NCBI GenBank assembly: GCA_019636795.1
Contig: JAHBWW010000006.1
Location: forward strand, 39,253-103,252
DNA: 64,000 nucleotides
Reading direction: 5' to 3'
Source of the DNA: Phycisphaeraceae bacterium
Lineage (GTDB): Bacteria; Planctomycetota; Phycisphaerae; Phycisphaerales; UBA1924
The stretch's first letter is position 1; the number at the start of each line of letters is the position of its first letter. Shown here piece by piece: positions 39,368 through 52,200 of this stretch. The notes beneath the pieces were generated by a model that saw only the letters and a program-made list of their open reading frames with translations, did not search any database and had not been told where the DNA came from. The translations under genes and the position numbers were made by a program.

Positions 39368-39804
39368 TCGCCAGCCCGGTGCCGTGTGCATACGTGTGAG
39401 TGGGGACGTGGCACCGACTGCAAGCCATGATTCATCCCCCCGTGCCACCCGCCTCCAGTCAGGACTCAGAGCGCGCCAGTCACGACTTGGAGAGTTCCAG
39501 TCATGACTGGAGGAGGGCCATTCGCCCACTCACTATCCACAATTCGGCCCTGGCGCGGTCAGGAACGCGGTTTTGCCCCGCCCGGCTCCCCAGAACTGAA
39601 ATCGGAAGCCCGCCAGAAGCCGCAGGCACCCCAATCGGCGGTATTCACACGGTTCAAGTTAGGAGACATCGGGGCGCTCTGGCTGGAGCCCAACCCTGAC
39701 GGCGCGGCACCGACCGCAATCGCTGATCTCATGCCCCCGAACACCGTCAGCCATGTCTCCTGTCTATACACAAAGCCGCGGTCCGATGGCACGACCCCAA
39801 GCAA

Positions 39805-43815: not shown

Positions 43816-44913
43816 ATGTTCAACCCGCTTGCTGATATCACTCGCATTACTGCTGGCCGCACCCGCTCGATCTGTGCTGAGAACCCCAAGGGCAAGAAGG
43901 GGGGCGGCGCGCAGGCCAAGGTCGGCGATGATCAACATTGCACCGAGGCGGCGAGCGAGCTGGGCAAGGGCTGGAAGGTGCGGCCTTGCCTGAAGAACTT
44001 CGCGCCCGGGCAGACGCTGACGCTGGCCGACATCGAGGGGCCGGGGGTGATCCAGCACATCTGGTGTACGGTGCTGCAGGGCGTACATCGGCATATTGCG
44101 CTGGAAGTGTTTTATGATGATGCGAAGGAGCCGAGCATTCGCTGTCCGCTGGGCGATTTCTTCGCCAACGGGGTCAATGGCAAGGCGCTGGTGAACTCGG
44201 CGACGGTGGTGGTGGCGCCGATGGGCGGGCAGAACTCGTATTGGCCGATGCCGTTTCGCAAGCGGATACGGATCACGGTGCGCAACGACGGGCCGGAGAT
44301 GATTCCGGACTTCTTTTATCAGATTACGTATGCCGAGCAGGAGGTCGGGGCCGATGCGGGGCTGCTGCACGTGGCGTGGAACCGGAGCCTGACGACGCGC
44401 CAGAATCCTGAACACGTGATTCTCGAAGGCATCAAGGGCAAGGGGCACTACGTCGGGACGTACCTGGTGTGGAATCAGTTGAGTTCGTGCTGGTGGGGCG
44501 AGGGGGAAGTGAAGTTCTTCATCGACGGCGACAAGCACGACGCGCCGACGATCTGCGGGACGGGGACGGAGGACTATTTTGGCGGGGCGTGGGGGTTTGT
44601 GATGGATCATGATGATCCGGCGCTGCCGCCACAGGTGTATTCGACGCCGTACCTTGGCTATTGCCAGTTCGAGGAGGGGTACAAGAAGAAGTGGGGCCCG
44701 CGCGTGCCGGCGCATGGTTTGTATCGGTGGCATCTGCCCGACCCGGTGCGGTTTGCCAGGGATCTGCGCGTGACGGTGCAGGCGCTGGGGTGGTACGAGA
44801 CGAAGAAGTATCAGCCACTGACCGACGACATCGCCTCGACGGCGTTCTGGTATCAGGCCAAGGCGATCGGGGCGCCGAAGTTGCCGGCGCTGAATGAGCG
44901 GCTGCCGCGGTGA
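43816..44913 (+). CDS. DUF2961 / GH172-family protein
   Basis: 365 aa. ICAENPKG N-terminus and GEGEVKFFIDGD...GTGTEDYFGGAWG motif, recalled for DUF2961. Confidence 0.75.
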   Translation: MFNPLADITRITAGRTRSICAENPKGKKGGGAQAKVGDDQHCTEAASELGKGWKVRPCLKNFAPGQTLTLADIEGPGVIQHIWCTVLQGVHRHIALEVFYDDAKEPSIRCPLGDFFANGVNGKALVNSATVVVAPMGGQNSYWPMPFRKRIRITVRNDGPEMIPDFFYQITYAEQEVGADAGLLHVAWNRSLTTRQNPEHVILEGIKGKGHYVGTYLVWNQLSSCWWGEGEVKFFIDGDKHDAPTICGTGTEDYFGGAWGFVMDHDDPALPPQVYSTPYLGYCQFEEGYKKKWGPRVPAHGLYRWHLPDPVRFARDLRVTVQALGWYETKKYQPLTDDIASTAFWYQAKAIGAPKLPALNERLPR

Positions 44914-45385
44914 GTTGGGAGAGCGCGGGGGCGTGCGTGGGGGCTTGCGTGCCGGGCGGTTGTGTGCCGGGCGTGTTGGGCGAGACGCACAGTGATCTGA
45001 AGAGCCGTCCTGCGGCGGAGATGGCGCGGGTGTGGGTCTGGCGATCGCGCGGGGTGTCGGTGGGCGCGGTCTGAAGAAGATCGACCAGTGCGCTGACGGC
45101 GAGCGATGCAAGTTCGGCGGCCTGGACGCGGGCGCGGGCGATGGCGGCGCGCTCGACGAGGGCGAGCTTGTCCTGGATGTGGGGGAGTTCGAGCCAGCGG
45201 GCGATGATGGTGACGGAGATGTTGAACTCGGCGGCGATCTCGGGGAGCGGGAGGCTTGAACGCAGAAGCGTGCTGAAGAGTTCGGACTCGCAGACGTGAG
45301 GCGGGAGGGGTGAAGTCGAGATCGGGTGATCGGGCGCGGCTCGTGAGGCGCAGGGTGTGTCGTGTGGTGCGATCATGAAGTGCAT
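44519..45385 (-). pseudogene. HTH-containing ORF whose reading frame runs 394 nt antisense into the GH172 gene (possible decayed or fused gene)
   Basis: Only the N-terminal ~110 aa look protein-like (LPLPEIAAEFNISVTIIARWLELPHIQDKLALVERAAIARARV). The rest is Pro/Thr/Ala/Arg-rich, and no stop occurs before 44519. Confidence 0.3.
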
Positions 45386-45496: not shown

Positions 45497-45594
45497 GTTG
45501 TTGGCAGGGGTGTTACAAGAGACCAAGACACACCGACCGCTCAGAGCCGCGGATCGGTGGCACGGGGATCGACGGTTTTGGTCGGTGTCACCTG
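45497..45594 (+). repeat. REP-like double-hairpin element, copy 1 (with 5' extension TTGTTGGCAGGGGTGTTACAAGAGACCAAGA)
   Basis: CACACCGACCGCTCAGAGCCGCGGaTCGGTGGCACGGGGATCGACGGTTTTGGTCGGTGTCACC. One base is inserted in the first stem. Confidence 0.9.
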
Positions 45595-45625
45595 CCTATC
45601 CTGCCCGCAACAAGAAGCCAAAGGG

Positions 45626-45690
45626 CACACCGACCGCTCAGAGCCGCGGTCGGTGGCACGGGGGATCGACGGTTTTGGTCGGTGCCACCC
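45626..45690 (+). repeat. REP-like element, copy 2
   Basis: CACACCGACCGCTCAGAGCCGCGGTCGGTGGCACGGGGGATCGACGGTTTTGGTCGGTGCCACC. Stem 1 is CACCGACCGC/GCGGTCGGTG; stem 2 is GGTGGCAC/GTGCCACC. Confidence 0.9.
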
Positions 45691-45729
45691 GCCATCACCA
45701 TTATTGAGCACGTCAATCTCCCATAAATC

Positions 45730-46341
45730 ATGCCATACACACTATTTACATCTCCAGTCGGCTTTAACTGTATCGAGATGACTCGAACGCAGGCAAAGCA
45801 ATTTTTTGAGCATTTCATGAATCAAATGCCGGAGCGTATCCAAATGTTGAGCCTTGAAGTTCGTGAGACATCCGGTTTTGAGGCATGGATTCCGGATGGG
45901 AGTGAACAATCTGTTCTTGGACTTGGGTTATGGCTCAAAGATCAAGCCAAAGCTCGGGAACTCACTGAGGAAGACCGTCAACAAATTGGTATTATCGACG
46001 ACAATCCGCTAAACGAGTGGATTGCAAGAACTCACATCGAAATGTCTGCAAAAACTTACTCGTACAGCATAGATTCTGGCATGTACTTCGGGGAAATTAT
46101 TCGAACCCGTCATCCGGCTACCGCGTGGCGGATCGGGTCAAAACCTAAGCGCGGAGTGAATTATAATCGTCCAGTCGTTGCGACGGAGGATGATTATTTT
46201 ATTATTGATCCAGTTGGGTGGATAGCCAATAGTCTTCATGGCTATTTATTGTATCGTCATGGAGTACCCGGATACGCGTCTGCCAGGAATTTTGACTTGT
46301 TGCGTGACCTGCATGAAAGAGAGCGTCATATTCAGCGATAG
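45730..46341 (+). CDS. hypothetical protein encoded by a conspicuously AT-richer gene
   Basis: 203-aa ORF with an ATG start. Normal mixed composition (K, E, I, N, F, Y frequent), unlike neighbouring genes. No motif recognised. Confidence 0.6.
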   Translation: MPYTLFTSPVGFNCIEMTRTQAKQFFEHFMNQMPERIQMLSLEVRETSGFEAWIPDGSEQSVLGLGLWLKDQAKARELTEEDRQQIGIIDDNPLNEWIARTHIEMSAKTYSYSIDSGMYFGEIIRTRHPATAWRIGSKPKRGVNYNRPVVATEDDYFIIDPVGWIANSLHGYLLYRHGVPGYASARNFDLLRDLHERERHIQR

Positions 46342-46483
46342 GGATCGGAATTGATCAGTTTTACGAGCAATGATACGTATTGTCATTGCCCTTCTGATCT
46401 TGGTCTTTGTTTGTACAACGTTTCCTGATCTCTCTATCTCCCATGACGGCATGAACTGGCTAGTGTGGGTGTGCGTGGACGGC

Positions 46484-46554
46484 AGGTGGCACCGACCGTC
46501 GACTTGGATTGACTTCTTCGTGCCACCGACCGCGGCTTTAAGCGGTCGGTGTGT
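46484..46554 (-). repeat. REP-like element, copy 3 (inverted orientation, divergent spacer)
   Basis: Reverse complement: CACACCGACCGCTTAAAGCCGCGGTCGGTGGCACGaagaagtcaatccaagtcgaCGGTCGGTGCCACC. Confidence 0.85.
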
Positions 46555-46579
46555 TTTCGAGTGAGTCAGTTCGATCGGT

Positions 46580-47260
46580 TCATACATATCCCTCCCACAT
46601 GGCCCAGGCGCGGGGGTCGCCTGGCGGCCAATCGCATGGGACATCTGCTGGATCCTGCTCGTGGCTTCGCTGGCGTGCGAACCACCATCGCGCACTTGAC
46701 CAGCGCCAATCGAGCGGCGCTGCGACCAGACCTCGTGCGACCGGGTTGTGGTGTGTGTAGCGAATGGCTTTATTAAGTTCGGTCTGCTCGCGAACATTGC
46801 GGTCGAAGCCGCCGCCCTTCTGCCAGAATCGGGTCGCTCCATCGGCCCGGACGATCTCTGACGCGAGCGGATCGCCTGAGTGTCGAAGGAAACGAAGAAC
46901 ACGTTGCTGGATCGAGAGTTTAAGGGATTTGAGAACAGGAGCAAGCGGGGATCCGTCAGGTGGAATGAGGAGAAGGTGGGTGTGTTCGGGCATGGCGACC
47001 CAGGCCAGCAACTTGAAGCTCAGTCGGTCTCTGGCTTCGCGGAGCGAACGTGCGAAGAGATCGCGAGCGTCGGGGGAGCCGAGCAGCGGGAGCCGACGTT
47101 CGCAGGAGAATGTTATAAATCGGACGCCGCCCGGAACCTCGCGGCGGGTCATGTGTTTTCGTATGGGATGTGGACTACCGCTCGCATCCGAGGTTGTAGG
47201 CTTGGAGGAGGATGTGGCTTCAGGTCGGGGGTCGCTGTTCATCGCTGCAGCATACCGCAT
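46580..47260 (-). CDS. REP-associated tyrosine transposase (RAYT; IS200-like Y1 HUH transposase family)
   Basis: GGVRFITFSCERRLPLL, MPEHTHLLL (HUH), AIRYTHHNPVARGL (catalytic Tyr + HxNP), WRWSS. Start uncertain: ATG at 47260, 47242 or 47152; the track GTG is at 47320. Confidence 0.8.
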   Translation of the reverse strand: MRYAAAMNSDPRPEATSSSKPTTSDASGSPHPIRKHMTRREVPGGVRFITFSCERRLPLLGSPDARDLFARSLREARDRLSFKLLAWVAMPEHTHLLLIPPDGSPLAPVLKSLKLSIQQRVLRFLRHSGDPLASEIVRADGATRFWQKGGGFDRNVREQTELNKAIRYTHHNPVARGLVAAPLDWRWSSARWWFARQRSHEQDPADVPCDWPPGDPRAWAMWEGYV

Positions 47261-47317
47261 CCGTCGGAGGGGAAATGGATGTGCATTGCGGATGGAACGG
47301 GTTGAAGGTGGGGAAGG

Positions 47318-47380
47318 CACACCGACCGCTCAAAGCCGCGGTCGGTGGCACGGGGGATCGACGGTTTTGGTCGGTGCACC
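47318..47380 (+). repeat. REP-like element, copy 4
   Basis: CACACCGACCGCTCAAAGCCGCGGTCGGTGGCACGGGGGATCGACGGTTTTGGTCGGTGCACC. Abuts the 5' end of the RAYT ORF. Confidence 0.9.
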
Positions 47381-47390
47381 CGCCGGGGAG

Positions 47391-47461
47391 GGGATTGTTG
47401 GCAGGGGTGTTACAAGAGACCAAGACACACCGACCGCTCAGAGCCGCGGTCGGTGGCACGG
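47391..47461 (+). repeat. REP-like element, copy 5 (5' extension as in copy 1; only the first hairpin is present)
   Basis: GGGATTGTTGGCAGGGGTGTTACAAGAGACCAAGACACACCGACCGCTCAGAGCCGCGGTCGGTGGCACGG. Confidence 0.85.
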
Positions 47462-47737
47462 TGAGCGTGGATGGCGAGGGGTGGTTGGTGCCACAACGCT
47501 GTTGGCGCGGGAATCTGGAGTTGTGGGAGAGGGATGAGGCTTTGTGAACTTTCGTTTCCTCTGCCCCTTCGGGGCAGGGTTGGAGAGATGCGGGTCTGTT
47601 CCACGGGTTGCGCTGCGCCCGGCTGGGGCCGGGCTGCGCTTCACCCGTGGCTACAAGCCTTCGCCCCTTCGGGGCGAGGACGTGCGGGAGCGTAATGGGT
47701 ACGACTGCGCGAGCTGATCGGCTGCGAGTCGTGGCGC

Positions 47738-47870
47738 GCGAGGTGGGAGTTGGGGCACGCGAGGTGGGAGTTGTGGCACGCGAGGTGGGAGTTGTGGCAC
47801 GCGAGGTGGGAGTTGTGGCACGCGAGGTGGGAGTTGTGGCATGTGAGGTGGGAGTTGTGGCATGTGAGGG
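47738..47870. repeat. 21-bp tandem repeat array, about 6.3 units
   Basis: GCGAGGTGGGAGTTGTGGCAC repeated head-to-tail at 47738, 47759, 47780, 47801, 47822 and 47843, plus a partial unit. Variants occur only at unit edges (GGGGCAC, GGCAT, GTGAGG). Confidence 0.95.
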
Positions 47871-47962
47871 ACGGGTGTTGTCGCACCGAAGTCGCAGAGC
47901 CGACTTCGGTGGCACGCCGACATCGTGGCACGGGTCATGAGACGGTTCGAAAGGGCGAAGAC

Positions 47963-48025
47963 ACACCGACCGCTCAGAGCCGCGGTCGGTGGCACGGGGG
48001 ATCGACGGTTTTGGTTGGTGTCACC
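47963..48025 (+). repeat. REP-like element, copy 6
   Basis: CACACCGACCGCTCAGAGCCGCGGTCGGTGGCACGGGGGATCGACGGTTTTGGTTGGTGTCACC. Confidence 0.9.
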
Positions 48026-48048
48026 AGCCGGAGAGAGTGGTCGGAGAA

Positions 48049-48070
48049 CCCAGGGATTGGGATCCCTGGG
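48049..48070. repeat. palindromic hairpin repeat, copy a
   Basis: CCCAGGGAT-tggg-ATCCCTGGG embedded in GAGAACCCAGGGATTGGGATCCCTGGGCTTGGGGG. Confidence 0.9.
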
Positions 48071-48226
48071 CTTGGGGGTCGGGTGGGTTTGGTGTTGGGC
48101 ATCATGGATGTTCATGATGGGCCTTGGGCGGCGTATTGCAAGGGGTTTTGGAGGTTGGGTCGGGAACTTGCGAGCGTGGGGGGATGGGGGGAGATTTTGG
48201 GGAGGTCGGGTTGAAGTCGGGGAAGG

Positions 48227-48289
48227 CACACCGACCGCTCAGAGCCGCGGTCGGTGGCACGGGGATCGACGGTTTTGGTTGGTGTCACC
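48227..48289 (+). repeat. REP-like element, copy 7
   Basis: CACACCGACCGCTCAGAGCCGCGGTCGGTGGCACGGGGATCGACGGTTTTGGTTGGTGTCACC. Its 3' end supplies the stop codon of the PPTase ORF. Confidence 0.9.
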
Positions 48290-49172
48290 AGCCGGAGAGA
48301 GTGGTCGGAGAACCCAGGGATTGGGATCCCTGGGCTTGGGGGAGTGTGGTTGGAGAACCCAGGGATTGGGATCCCTGGGCTTGGGGGTCGGTGGCATGGG
48401 GAGGGTGGATGGCGAGTGCGGCGGTGTGGGCAGGGTCGGCGGGATCGAGTGCGAGGTTGGTCAGGTGGATGGGTGCGGGGCTCTTGAGCGCGTTGGGGCT
48501 GGGGAGCGCGACGGTATTGCGGCTGGGCAGTGCGACGGCACCTGGGCTTGGGGGAATGACGGTATTGGGGCTGGGGAGCATGATGGTATCGGGGCGGGTG
48601 TCGATGGTTTGGGGGTTGGTGGCGAAGCCGGTGCCGAGGGCTTTGAGGAGGGCTTCTTTGCGGGTCCAGAGTTGGAAGAAGTGCTGCGGTTGTGCGGTGG
48701 GCGGGAGTGCGGCGTGGGCTGCGAGTTCGTCCGGGTGCATGAAGATGCGGGCGGCGTCGAGGGTTGCGTGGGCGGGGTCGATGTGGGCCAGGTCGATGCC
48801 GAGGCGGCGGTGCGGGGCGAGCGCGAGGGCGGCGATGTTGCCAGCGGACGCGGTCGAGAGGTGGATGTGTGTGAGGTGATGGGGGGCGGTGATGGTGGGG
48901 CAGCCTAGGGCGTCGTGGGTGATGCGGATGTCGGCGGGGGCGAGGTTGAAGGTGCGGGCGATGAATTGGGTGCGCCACCAGCGGCGGCAGATGAAGCGGG
49001 CGCGGTGAAGACCAGAGCGCAGCGATGCGGCGCGGGTTTGCTCGGCTGGGTCGAGGGTTGCGGCGAGGGCGTCGAGGGGTTCGCTTATGGTGTCGAGCGC
49101 GATCATGGCGGTCAGGACGCCATCGAAGGGCTCGGGCAGCGCGAGGGGCGAGGTGGAGAGTGCGAAGGTCAC
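48285..49172 (-). CDS. Sfp-type 4'-phosphopantetheinyl transferase (with repeat-encoded C-terminal tail)
   Basis: RRLGIDLAHI and FFQLWTRKEALLKALGTG, the PPTase motifs. Lies 30 nt downstream of the NRPS stop. GTG start at 49172 (alternative ATG 49106). Confidence 0.85.
   Translation of the reverse strand: MTFALSTSPLALPEPFDGVLTAMIALDTISEPLDALAATLDPAEQTRAASLRSGLHRARFICRRWWRTQFIARTFNLAPADIRITHDALGCPTITAPHHLTHIHLSTASAGNIAALALAPHRRLGIDLAHIDPAHATLDAARIFMHPDELAAHAALPPTAQPQHFFQLWTRKEALLKALGTGFATNPQTIDTRPDTIMLPSPNTVIPPSPGAVALPSRNTVALPSPNALKSPAPIHLTNLALDPADPAHTAALAIHPPHATDPQAQGSQSLGSPTTLPQAQGSQSLGSPTTLSGW
48313..48334. repeat. palindromic hairpin repeat, copy b
   Basis: CCCAGGGAT-tggg-ATCCCTGGG. Confidence 0.9.
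48358..48379. repeat. palindromic hairpin repeat, copy c
   Basis: CCCAGGGAT-tggg-ATCCCTGGG. Confidence 0.9.
48498..48617. repeat. imperfect 24-bp tandem repeat x5 inside the PPTase ORF tail
   Basis: Units GCTGGGGAGCGCGACGGTATTGCG / GCTGGGCAGTGCGACGGCACCTGG / GCTTGGGGGAATGACGGTATTGGG / GCTGGGGAGCATGATGGTATCGGG / GCGGGTGTCGATGGTTTGGGGGTT. Confidence 0.7.
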
Positions 49173-49202
49173 GGGGGGATTGTTGGCGCGCGGGGGTTGG
49201 CT

Positions 49203-52200
49203 TCAGGTTGAGGAGGAGGTGTGAATGGGGGCGGGGGTGAGGATGCGGTCGAGTTCGCGTGCCAGGACGCCGGCGGAGCGCGGGCTAAAGAAGTTGAGAT
49301 GGTCGCAGGGGAGTGGATGGACGTTGAGCTCGCCGCGGGCGAAGTTTTCCCAGCCGAGGGCGTGGAGGTCTTTGTATTCGTCTTCCTGATGCTGGGCGCG
49401 GAGGAGGGAGATGGGTCCGGCCCAGGGGCGGGGGCGGTATTTGAAGTAGGCGGAGAGGTTGGCGAAGCGCACTGGCCAGGGGCGGAGGCGGCGCGGGATG
49501 GGGAGGTTGAAGCGTGCGCAGAGTTTGTAGGCGTTGCGTTCGACGGGGCCGATCCAGAGCGTTCGGAGGAAGTGGCGCGGGCCGGAGCGGAGTTGATAGA
49601 TGAAGCGTTTGCGGAGGGTGCGCTGGAGCGAGCGACCGGCGGCCTGTCGGAGGACTCGGGTGTCGATCATGATGATGCGTTCGACGGGCTGATCGAGTTG
49701 TGTGAGGCGGTGGGCGATTTCGAGTGCGATGGCGCCGCCGAGGGAGTAGCCGCCGAGGATGTAGGGGCCTTGCGGTTGGATGGTGCGGATGGCGTCGAGG
49801 TAATGATCGGCCATGTCTTCGATGGTGGTCAGCGGGGTTGCGTCGCCGTGGACACCGCGTGCCATGATGCCGTAGAGGGGCTGATCGGGGGAGAGGCCGG
49901 GGAGAAGGCGTTCGAGGAAGAGGACGTTGCCGTCCATGCCGTGGATGCAGAAGAAGGGGATGCGTGAGCCGGTGGTGCGGAAGGGGGCGATGACGGAGGT
50001 GTCGTGTGGGGATTGATTGCCTTCGATGAGGTCGCGCAGGGCGGCGGGGGTGGAGGCGCGGAGGAGGGCGGCGAGGGGGATGGTCTTTTTGAACTCGGCT
50101 TCGATGCGTGCGACGAGTTTGACGGCGAGGAGGGAGTGGCCGCCGAGGTCGAAGAAGGATTGAGCAGGGCCGACGGCGGGGAGGGCGAGGAGGGATTGGA
50201 AGATTTCGCAGATGCGGCGTGTGGTGGGATCGGTGATGGGCTCGGTGGTGATGATGTTGGTGGGGTCGGGGAGGGCGGTGCGGTTGAGTTTGCCGTTGGG
50301 GGTGCGCGGGAGGTGATCGAGGGGGATGAGTGCGGCGGGGAGCATGTAGTCGGGGAGGCGGCCTTTGAGGAAGCGGCGGATTTCGGGCGTGTGGTCGGTG
50401 GGCTCGGTGCTGCCGTTGGCTGGGACGAAGTAGGCGTGGAGTGCGGTGCCGGTGTGGGTGTTGCGCGCGATGACGGCGGCTTCGAGGACGGCGGGGTGCA
50501 TGCTGATGGTGTGTTCGACTTCGCCGAGTTCGACGCGGAAGCCTCGGATTTTGGTCTGGTTGTCGGCGCGGCCGAGGTATTCGAGGTTGCCTTGGTCGTT
50601 CCAGCGTGCGAGGTCGCCGGTGTTGAAGAGGGTTGATGCGTTGAGTTCGGGGATGGGGATGGGGTTGGGGTTGGGGAGGAAGCGTTCGGCGGTGAGGTCG
50701 GGGCGGTTGTGGTAGCCATCGGCGAGGCATGGTCCGGCGACGTGGATGATGCCGGGGACGTTGGGGGGGGTTGGGTGGAGGCGATGATCGAGGAGGGCGA
50801 TTTTGACGTTGGAGATGGGGCGGCCGATGGGAATGACACCGGCGTCGATGTCGGCGGAGGTGACGACGTGTGCGGTGGCGTCGGCGGCGATTTCGGATGA
50901 GCCGTAGAGGTTGATGAGTTCGACGTGCGGGAGTGCGGCGAGGAAGCGCTGGGCGCGGTTCCAGGAGAGTGCTTCGCCGCTGGAGACGCAGATGCGGAGG
51001 TGCGGGAGGTGTTTGTGGAGGTCTGGGTGTGTGTCGAGGATGGCTTCGAGGAGTGCGGGGACGACGGTGATGCGTGAGATTTTGTTTTTGCGGAGTGCGG
51101 CGACGAGTGCGCGTGGGTCTTTGACGGTTTGGTGTGGGAGGATGTTGATGGGGACGCCGGCGAGGAGTGGACCGAAGGCTTCCCAGACGTGATCGACGAA
51201 GTTGATGGTGGTCTGCCAGGAGGTGGTTTCGTTTGGTTGGAAGGGTCGCCAGTTCCACATCCATCGGAAGCGGTTGATGGCGCCGGCGTGTGTGCCGCGG
51301 ACGCCTTTGGGGAGGCCCGTGGAGCCGGAGGTGTAGGTGATGTAGGCGACGGTTGCGTCGGGCGATGGGAGGGGGGCGTTGGAGGGTTTGATGGTGGCGA
51401 TGTTGATGACGGTTGCGAGGCTGGGAGGGAGAACGGCGGCGGTGTCGGCGGTTGCGAGGACGAATGGGGGTGCGGCGTCGCGGAGGATGTGTTCGAGGCG
51501 TGCTGCGGGGTAGGTGGGATCGAGTGGGACGTAGCAGCAGTTGGCGCGGAGGACGCCGAGGAGGGCGGTGGGGAGCTGGAGCGATGGTTCGATGCAGACT
51601 GCGATGGGGGTGTTGGGCGAGACGCCGAGGGAGATGAGGTGGGCGGCGACTGCGGCGCTCTGGCGGTCGAGGGCGGCGTAGGTGAGCGAGGAGGAGTTGT
51701 ATCGGTATGCGGTGGCGTTTGGGGTTTTGCGGGCTTGCTCGGCGAAGAGGCTTTGGATGGTGGCGGGAGGGTTTGAGGCGATGGTTTGATTGGGGAGCGT
51801 GATGAGGCGAAGGCGATCGGCGTCGTCGGTGATTTCGATTGCGTCGATGGAGAGGGCCGGATCGGCGGCGAGGCGGCGCATGGTGCGCAGGGTGTCATCG
51901 AGGAGTTGGCGGACGAGTGCGGGATCGACGGCTGCGGTGTCGAATCGGGCTTCGATGTCGAATGTTTTCCATGGGGTGACCATGAGGGTGAGGGGGACGT
52001 CGGTCCAGCCGAAGGATTTTGGGGATTCGATGGAGATTGGTGATGCGCGGCCGGAGCGTGCGTCGTCGAGGGGGTAGTTGCCGAAGACGACGATGGAGTT
52101 GAAGAGTGGGGTGCGTGGTGGGAAGTGTGCGCAGCGGTGGATGTCGGAGAGGGGGGTTTGTTCGAAGCGGGTGGAGTCGGAGATTTGTTTCTGGATTGAG

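Follow-up and report, generated by a model that had tools for sequence, protein, structure and literature searches.

A RAYT gene within a cluster of REP-type hairpin repeats in a Phycisphaeraceae bacterium

The repeat cluster and its transposase gene

We analysed a stretch of 64,000 nucleotides (nt) from contig JAHBWW010000006.1 of a Phycisphaeraceae bacterium (assembly GCA_019636795.1), from here on called the window, and in it a cluster of short hairpin repeats at positions 45529-48293. Seven copies (c1 to c7) of a unit of 63-68 nt, six of them forward and one inverted, make up the cluster, which surrounds the gene of a REP-associated tyrosine transposase (RAYT), where REP stands for repetitive extragenic palindrome. 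The unit is made up of a hairpin, a short tag directly after it, a spacer and a 3' motif, which we call the echo because it copies a part of the hairpin arm. The units and the gene they surround are the following:

45529-45596, forward strand: REP unit c1, with hairpin, GCACG tag, spacer and the echo GGTCGGTGTCACCTGCC; it has a 1-nt insertion in the 3' arm
45626-45693, forward strand: REP unit c2, used as the reference, with an echo end (45677-45693) that adjoins a low-GC island
46481-46553, reverse strand: REP unit c3, the inverted copy, 29 nt beyond the RAYT stop
46580-47152, reverse strand: RAYT, 190 amino acids (aa), intact, with matches to NF047646 and 4ER8 and with HUH and Tyr motifs
47318-47384, forward strand: REP unit c4, about 170 nt 5' of the RAYT start; with c3 it forms a bracket with the tags outward
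47426-47494, forward strand: REP unit c5, with hairpin and tag as in the other units, a different spacer and the echo GGTTGGTGCCAC
47962-48029, forward strand: REP unit c6, within a duplicated composite block that also holds the palindrome CCCAGGGATTGGGATCCCTGGG
48227-48293, forward strand: REP unit c7, whose echo motif contains the stop codon (48285-48287) of a minus-strand open reading frame (ORF) for a phosphopantetheinyl transferase (PPTase)

A scan of the 64-kb window with the 28-nt core CACCGACCGC-N8-GCGGTCGGTG gave six matches at no more than three mismatches, compared to 0.00 in 100 dinucleotide-preserving shuffles. The similarity of the copies is thus real, and the seven copies proposed in an earlier note on this DNA, six forward and one inverted, were borne out. 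Unit c1 escapes the core scan because of the 1-nt insertion in its 3' arm (GCGGATCGGTG), and it was recovered in a 68-nt direct-repeat family (D2) at 84% identity. In the alignment of all copies the hairpin is invariant and is followed directly by an invariant GGCAC(G). The spacer after this tag is common to c1, c2, c4, c6 and c7, other spacers being present in c3 and c5, and the conserved end of the unit is GGTYGGTGYCACC(N)GCC; c4 has a 1-nt deletion within the 3' motif. Read on the forward strand, c3 is a hairpin followed by TGTTTTC, an arrangement resembling a terminator. The spacing of the copies is irregular (97, 1692, 108, 536 and 265 nt). Neither a Hamming scan nor a hairpin scan detected a further intact copy in the whole 64 kb, and the tagged perfect hairpins of the window, seven in number, are all situated at 45.6-48.3 kb. 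The earlier statement that no copy occurs elsewhere holds for such intact tagged hairpins and fails for two decayed partial copies near 39.4-39.8 kb. The peptides that had been reported to recur in ORFs of this region were also seen, in spurious ORFs.

The flanks group the copies further, and the two subfamilies suggested by the same note are real: c1 and c5 have common 5' flanks (95% identity over 65 nt, family D4), and the flanks of c4 and c7 are 80% identical over 87 nt (family D6). Likewise c6 and c7 have common flanks outside the unit (family D5). Since pairs of copies share their flanks, blocks larger than the unit must have been duplicated.

The unit had been described as a double hairpin, and one of the two hairpins stands. 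In six of the seven copies stem 1 pairs perfectly over 10 bp and encloses a loop of 8 nt, and hairpin 1 forms in every fold, whether computed as single-stranded DNA or as RNA. Folded as RNA, the unit reaches -35.3 kcal/mol (z -3.9). The second hairpin of c2 is built from the window-specific spacer, and this spacer hairpin is not conserved in c3, in c5 or in relatives. Moreover, c1, c6 and c7 read GTGTCACC, which places a G.T pair in the proposed stem 2, and for c6 the second hairpin is not predicted and the z of the whole unit is only -1.3. Therefore, only hairpin 1 is a robust, covarying structure. No Rfam family scored above noise for the element. On the evidence of the sequences, the second hairpin is better read as an echo, in which the unit repeats the final ~8 nt of its own 3' arm and then continues with the constant CCACCYGCC. 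The proposed ability of the 3' GGTCGGTG to pair with the 5' arm was upheld, and this motif covaries with the stem in genomes with other REP stems. In addition, GGTGGCAC is the exact reverse complement of GTGCCACC, and neither varies within the family.

The protein encoded between c3 and c4 scores 89.8 bits (E 1.5e-25) with the NCBIfam equivalog NF047646 (REP_Tyr_transpos), for which the cut-off is 80 bits. Its best and only match in the Protein Data Bank (PDB) is 4ER8, the TnpA_REP of E. coli, and both the HUH and the catalytic Tyr motifs are aligned (PEHTHLL with PEHMHCI, and YTHHNPV with YIYINPV). The ATG giving the length of 190 aa is common to all homologues. The HUH motif is the H-T-H of AMPEHTHLL, in which both His residues are invariant in seven sequences, and the Tyr motif YTHHNP fits the signature Y---NP of class 2 TnpA_REP, the signature of IS200 transposases being Y---Q (PMC6006769). 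The motifs WQ and YIH[RH]NP together with the length of ~190 aa resemble several published subclasses, and a subclass is not assignable from the motif table. The window has a single RAYT copy, while some relatives have two or more, and an exact-protein look-up of the window's RAYT returned no record. Units c3 and c4 are inverted relative to each other and bracket the gene with their tags outward, so that gene and bracket together, the putative 'REPtron', extend over 46481-47384. When oriented by the gene, the window and its four closest relatives have a REP(-) at a distance of 139-196 nt on the upstream side and a REP(+) at 29-42 nt on the downstream side. Within the fetched stretches, the neighbouring genes of the window were not found near the RAYTs of relatives.

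Hairpin, tag and echo in related genomes

The evidence from related genomes comes from scans of sequence collections for the exact stem with any loop. The stem was found in at least 120 stretches, and about 100 among the matches listed are from approximately 25 Phycisphaerales or Phycisphaeraceae assemblies, in which the core is dispersed and extragenic and occurs on many contigs without a RAYT. The remaining matches, in actinomycetes and others, were rejected as chance, their loops being unrelated. The loci were fetched for containing the stem or a RAYT, and the frequencies given here describe those neighbourhoods and not whole genomes. Directly after the hairpin, GCACG is present in 94 of the 102 copies listed, although these were oriented by the loop and the tag was not imposed by the search. 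An inverted partner is located 14-56 nt upstream in 26 of the 102, forming doublets with outward tags that are similar to REPINs (REP doublets forming hairpins) and bacterial interspersed mosaic elements (BIMEs). As judged by a mask for gene-likeness that uses a crude rule on GC content at third codon positions, 72 of the 102 listed cores are outside gene-like ORFs even though 74% of the DNA is gene-like (P ~1e-21). Six of the listed loci encode a RAYT 54-76% identical to that of the window, and in the four closest of them (61-76% aa identity) the REP(-) is 139-196 nt upstream and the REP(+) 32-42 nt downstream of the gene.

With a profile made from seven RAYTs we obtained 196 relatives, nearly all from Phycisphaerales, and 80 of their loci were fetched. 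In 60 of the 80 loci, the interval from -450 to +350 nt around the RAYT contains one or more perfect hairpins with the tag GTGC (5') or GCAC (3'), and most of the hairpins near a RAYT carry the tag (171 of 203). The density of tagged hairpins is 2.7 per kb near the RAYT versus 0.07 per kb more than 1.2 kb away, and the nearest upstream and downstream hairpins have their tags outward in 24 of 46 loci. The hairpins have 76 distinct stems, 64 of which start with CAC, and their loops are mostly CARAGC or AGGA(A). Because this first survey required perfect stems, the test of pairing was repeated with the anchor on tag and loop only, and it gave 155 sites with at most one mismatch compared to 4.1 (maximum 10) after re-dealing the arms among the sites. 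Among 45 distinct 11-bp stems, positions 1-2 are invariant (C-G, A-T), whereas positions 5-11 change freely and stay complementary. The layout of the tags, CGTGC-CAC...GTG-GCACG, is likewise constant, as are the loop and the first 2-3 pairs of the stem, and the stems differ between genomes yet remain paired. The invariant foot and the covarying distal part point to hairpin, foot, loop and tag as what selection or the enzyme recognises, the distal stem being free to vary. Solo tags (GGCACG) within 80 nt downstream of REPs were also in excess, with 23 found and 5.9 expected.

Some of the fetched loci deserve mention on their own. Five REP hairpins of two alternating types stand beside the RAYT at 59-nt spacing in CAZBDZ010000026.1, as in BIMEs, and in JBFWWU010000003.1 a tandem array beside the RAYT has five REP hairpins ~48 nt apart. 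A RAYT 46% identical to that of the window is encoded on a 2.9-kb contig (PWLK01000079.1) binned as a Woesearchaeota archaeon, which is probably a mis-binned Phycisphaerae contig.

The echo was followed in genomes with other stems. There, in 23 of 51 cases the 5 nt before GTGCCAC agree with the arm found in that genome, one mismatch being allowed, versus 3 when other arms were used as a control; for example, the arm CGGTAATCGGTG occurs with CGTAATCGGTGCCACCCG and the arm GAGGTCAGTG with CGAGGTCAGTGCCACCCG. The spacer between hairpin and echo is 3-45 nt long (median ~15), and an echo accompanies 17% of the hairpins that have a RAYT no more than 500 nt away, compared with 7% of the remaining hairpins and five of the seven in the window. 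It can pair with the 5' arm or, via GTGCCACC, with the foot and tag GGTGGCAC. A remnant of an inverted REP was rejected as the origin of the 3' motif, since a constant CACCYG follows GTGC whatever the stem. In IS608 the cleavage site has a sequence that pairs, from a distance, with a tetranucleotide of the hairpin foot (PMC6006769), and by analogy with this guide-target pairing the echo may mark the end of the unit or help to position cleavage.

Explanation of the cluster and its alternatives

It is very likely that the repeats are REPs of a Phycisphaerales-wide family clustered round their cognate RAYT, that is, a REPtron. The earlier note had implied REP-type extragenic palindromes that are not part of a larger mobile element, and this is supported by the RAYT inside the cluster and by the dispersed, extragenic core in relatives; the cluster is not enclosed by mobility genes or by terminal repeats of another kind. 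REPs with a RAYT are a well-known kind of bacterial repeat, and those described here have an unusual tag and a two-part unit and belong to an uncultured lineage of Phycisphaerae. The cluster can thus be explained as an ordinary REP/RAYT system, and the ORFs crossing the repeats can be ignored.

By analogy with TnpA_REP of E. coli and TnpA of IS608, the RAYT would bind the folded hairpin on single-stranded DNA, for example on the lagging-strand template. It would read the unpaired tag at the foot, where the complement of the consensus has 5'-CGTGC instead of GT[AG]G, and it could then cut and rejoin DNA nearby, spreading or maintaining the units. The flanks shared between copies show that a part of the local copies arose when larger blocks were duplicated, and not by transposition of single units. 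As a by-product, transcripts probably end or terminate at the hairpins after the operon of nonribosomal peptide synthetase (NRPS) and PPTase genes and between the convergent island ORF and RAYT.

Several observations weigh against the REP/RAYT explanation. Every intact copy in the 64 kb adjoins the RAYT, and some copies came by block duplication, to judge from the shared flanks. A contig scan for the window-specific spacer detected it in none of the other Phycisphaerales records; its one unrelated match was to a metagenome-assembled genome of Kuenenia, and a scan of metagenomes gave no match to it. A canonical REP is defined by a 5' GT[AG]G tetranucleotide at the hairpin foot (PMC6006769), and here the tag is GTGC instead (CGTGC on the tag-first strand). 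In the protein, Pfam Y1_Tnp remains below its cut-off (19 versus 23 bits). Furthermore, the middle residue of the HUH motif is Thr, whereas the six aligned relatives have H-V-H or H-A-H, and Thr is not among the middle residues listed for this motif, which are L, V, I, F, Y and M (PMC6006769). Due to this atypical H-T-H, the window's RAYT copy is at most a putatively active one.

The restriction of the copies to one place could also mean that they are only the long terminal inverted repeats (TIRs) of the RAYT, a 'TIRtron' in the terms of Di Nocera, multiplied locally by unequal recombination or slippage. All intact copies are indeed within 2.8 kb of the RAYT, the flanks of c1/c5, c4/c7 and c6/c7 are shared beyond the unit as expected from block duplication, the spacer is missing from the other Phycisphaerales records, and the tagged hairpins of relatives are ~38 times denser near the RAYT than farther off. 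However, the identical hairpin and tag are dispersed and extragenic on RAYT-less contigs in ~25 assemblies, two relics are situated 6 kb off in the window, and c2 and c3 have unrelated flanks, which makes this explanation unlikely. It is even less probable, and in our view very unlikely, that the RAYT and its flanking hairpins form an autonomous insertion sequence (IS) of the IS200/IS605 type with the other copies as its solo ends. Such an element would have a Y1/HUH transposase with subterminal hairpins, as is the case here, and would agree with the two or more homologous genes in several relatives and with a gene neighbourhood that is not conserved between genomes. The Tyr motif, on the other hand, is the Y---NP of class 2 TnpA_REP and not Y---Q, the flanking hairpins are mutually inverted and not co-oriented like left and right ends, and the window has one copy of the gene in 64 kb, no tnpB and an NCBIfam equivalog that is REP-associated.

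If the elements were primarily signals at the RNA level, such as terminators, stabilisers or small RNAs, the proximity of the RAYT would be incidental, and the bracketing by outward tags in 60 of 80 loci would be left unexplained. The stable RNA fold (-35.3 kcal/mol, z -3.9), the hairpin and T-rich tail of c3 after the island ORFs and the position of copies downstream of the NRPS-PPTase operon would fit such a role, but there is no Rfam match, most copies have no T-run behind them and both orientations are present, and we regard the explanation as highly improbable. A foreign-looking gene in one of the repeat-bounded intervals may bring to mind the array of an integron or a CRISPR locus, in which the repeats would be attC sites between cassettes or CRISPR repeats between spacers. 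This is scarcely credible in a region with irregular spacing, mixed orientations, no IntI or cas gene nearby and no GTTRRRY/RYYYAAC core sites in the consensus. A miniature inverted-repeat transposable element of the DDE type was also considered and rejected, as no DDE transposase is present and what adjoins the hairpin element is a RAYT.

The low-GC island, the surrounding repeats and known systems

In addition to the units and the RAYT, the following features were recorded in the window:

45730-46341, forward strand: 203-aa ORF of unknown function, in the low-GC island between the echo ends of c2 and c3
47882-47916, forward strand: variant REP (an eighth hairpin) with stem CACCGAAGTCG/CGACTTCGGTG, family D3, fold z -4.8
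39400-39470, reverse strand: decayed partial unit with stem end, tag, spacer and echo; score 60
39690-39800, no strand given: decayed or rearranged REP relic with arm, loop, tag and echo-like pieces; score 53
47726-47869, forward strand: 21-nt tandem array of 6.9 units, family D1, with GTGGCACG in every unit

The low-GC island (~45694-46480, 0.8 kb) has a GC content of 44-46% compared to ~63% in the locus, and it is placed exactly between the echo ends of c2 and c3, the interval from the c2 to the c3 hairpin that encloses it being 868 nt. The long start of the 203-aa ORF is right, since homologues align from residue 1-3. The family of this protein has ~587 representative clusters and no annotation. 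No match was found in Pfam, NCBIfam or PADLOC, and the one PHROG match is of unknown function (E 0.016); a weak link to DUF6278 was seen in 6 of 48 homologues. The AlphaFold model is confident, with a pLDDT (predicted local distance difference test) of 94.6, but no PDB sequence matched, Foldseek found no fold neighbour in the PDB (best E 0.68, template modelling score 0.37) and an exact-protein look-up returned no record.

An unsorted survey of RAYT loci detected a REP(+) just past the RAYT stop in 32 of 81 loci, and in 9 of these 32 the interval was closed by a REP(-) within the fetched 3 kb. Seven of the nine closed slots, a small sample, enclose DNA with a GC content below that of the locus. 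Four slots are 795-871 nt long, and the junctions are alike in form (echo-CCACCYGCC, insert, GGCRGGTGG-echo). The slots of five relatives were examined, and each has a different ORF, none of them related to the gene in the window: one is lipoprotein-like, two have transmembrane-like hydrophobic stretches, to which one of the two adds a zinc-ribbon-like Cys motif, one bears a weak resemblance to SUKH-1, and the fifth is an ORF of 88 aa. The echo end of the unit (ending in GTGCCACCYGCC) might be a junction that captures foreign DNA beside the RAYT, producing a variable 'cassette slot' between inward-facing REPs, but we consider this doubtful. Such a slot would roughly be the counterpart of an integron site with an HUH enzyme. 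Alternatively, these could merely be accessory genes between repeats in a variable region. A recurrent REP-bounded low-GC slot beside the RAYT would have wider interest if true, that is, if it is more than accessory genes between repeats.

The variant hairpin at 47882-47916 has the loop CAGAGC and the tag GCACG unchanged, and its stem is fully compensated. The stem CACCGAAGTCG resembles REPs beside more distant RAYTs elsewhere (for example CACCGAAGTCT in loci L142 and L153), which suggests that the genome of the window may hold another RAYT/REP pair elsewhere. The alignment scores of the two relics can be compared to a null with a 99th percentile of 48.9 and a maximum of 56. In the 21-nt tandem array, the recurring GTGGCACG corresponds to the REP stem foot and the tag. 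The palindrome CCCAGGGATTGGGATCCCTGGG has three copies (48049-48070, 48313-48334 and 48358-48379), two of which accompany c6 and c7 in a duplicated block. Its two copies do not differ over 82 nt, and the block reaches ~116 nt with the REP core included (families D5 and I11-I13). GC-rich stem-loops of the type GCCCCTTCGGGGC are found upstream of the RAYT at 47622-47722. In the sole sequencing run found, a DNA run, they were matched by many contigs of other organisms, with a summed word depth of ~430 and loose ends on both sides, which suggests a separate, widely shared short repeat. This run contained two 151-nt traces of the organism of the window, as DNA, and no RNA.

The genes on either side of the cluster gave some further observations. 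At 48285-48620 the PPTase ORF, in which an ACPS domain covers residues 124-196, continues through tandem and palindromic repeats. Since its stop is inside the echo of c7 and the ORF crosses the repeats, the C-terminal part of the PPTase is probably repeat-derived. At 48000-52000, where the PPTase and NRPS genes are on the minus strand, the GC skew of the plus strand is +0.4 to +0.59 in 200-nt windows, meaning that their coding strand is strongly C-rich over G, an unusual composition for a coding strand. Upstream of c1 and c2, a small minus-strand ORF at 44853-45385 has a helix-turn-helix-like stretch, LPEIAAEFNISVTIIARWLE. It has no match in Pfam or PHROG and only a marginal one in PADLOC (E 0.05), and it may be the real gene between DUF2961 and the REP cluster.

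In the library searched we found no paper naming both Phycisphaerae and repetitive extragenic palindromes. Many genes for tyrosine transposases that have repeats on either side were described earlier from the planctomycete R. baltica (Di Nocera et al. 2013, PMC3733652). RAYTs of the present clade are widespread in Phycisphaerales and their REPs have the tag CGTGC, which provides a natural specificity variant for studying how TnpA_REP reads its guide. The conserved loop and stem foot, as opposed to the free distal stem, map the likely contact surface on the DNA, and the two-part unit with an echo that coevolves with the stem is a concrete candidate for how the unit end or the cleavage site is defined.

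The REPtrons of E. coli, Pseudomonas and Stenotrophomonas (4ER8; PMC6006769; PMC3116915; PMC3337134) likewise have a single intact class-2 Y1/HUH gene with inverted short GC-rich hairpins on either side. As in the relatives of the window's genome, their hairpin also occurs at dispersed extragenic sites, be it singly, in inverted doublets or in clusters, the stems co-evolve with the transposase lineage, and there is an unpaired tag at the hairpin foot. In contrast, the tag in the present system is (C)GTGC instead of GT[AG]G, and it also differs from the CGTC or CnGA tags of other described classes. Different lineages have kept the same loop (CARAGC or AGGA), a 3' echo of the unit's own arm with a constant CCACCYGCC is present in many units, and the hosts are Phycisphaerales (Planctomycetota). 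The units of the window are not strict REPINs, as they have one full hairpin and an echo of 13-17 nt and no second REP.

The tag belongs to neither the GTAG nor the CGTC superfamily of palindromic repeats (PMC3733652), and unlike the CGTC repeats the present ones have a dedicated transposase. TIRtrons, with their TIR-associated transposases (TIRYTs; PMC3733652), differ in that most TIRs are not, as the flanking repeat is here, themselves a dispersed hairpin family. The ends of IS200/IS605 elements (IS608, ISDra2) are similar in having subterminal hairpins that a Y1 HUH enzyme reads on single-stranded DNA. In IS608 a distant short sequence pairs with the foot tetranucleotide, and the complementarity of echo and tag appears analogous to this. 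Compared to those elements, however, the RAYT described here has Y---NP and not Y---Q, its hairpins are inverted and not co-oriented, and the gene is present in one copy in the window.

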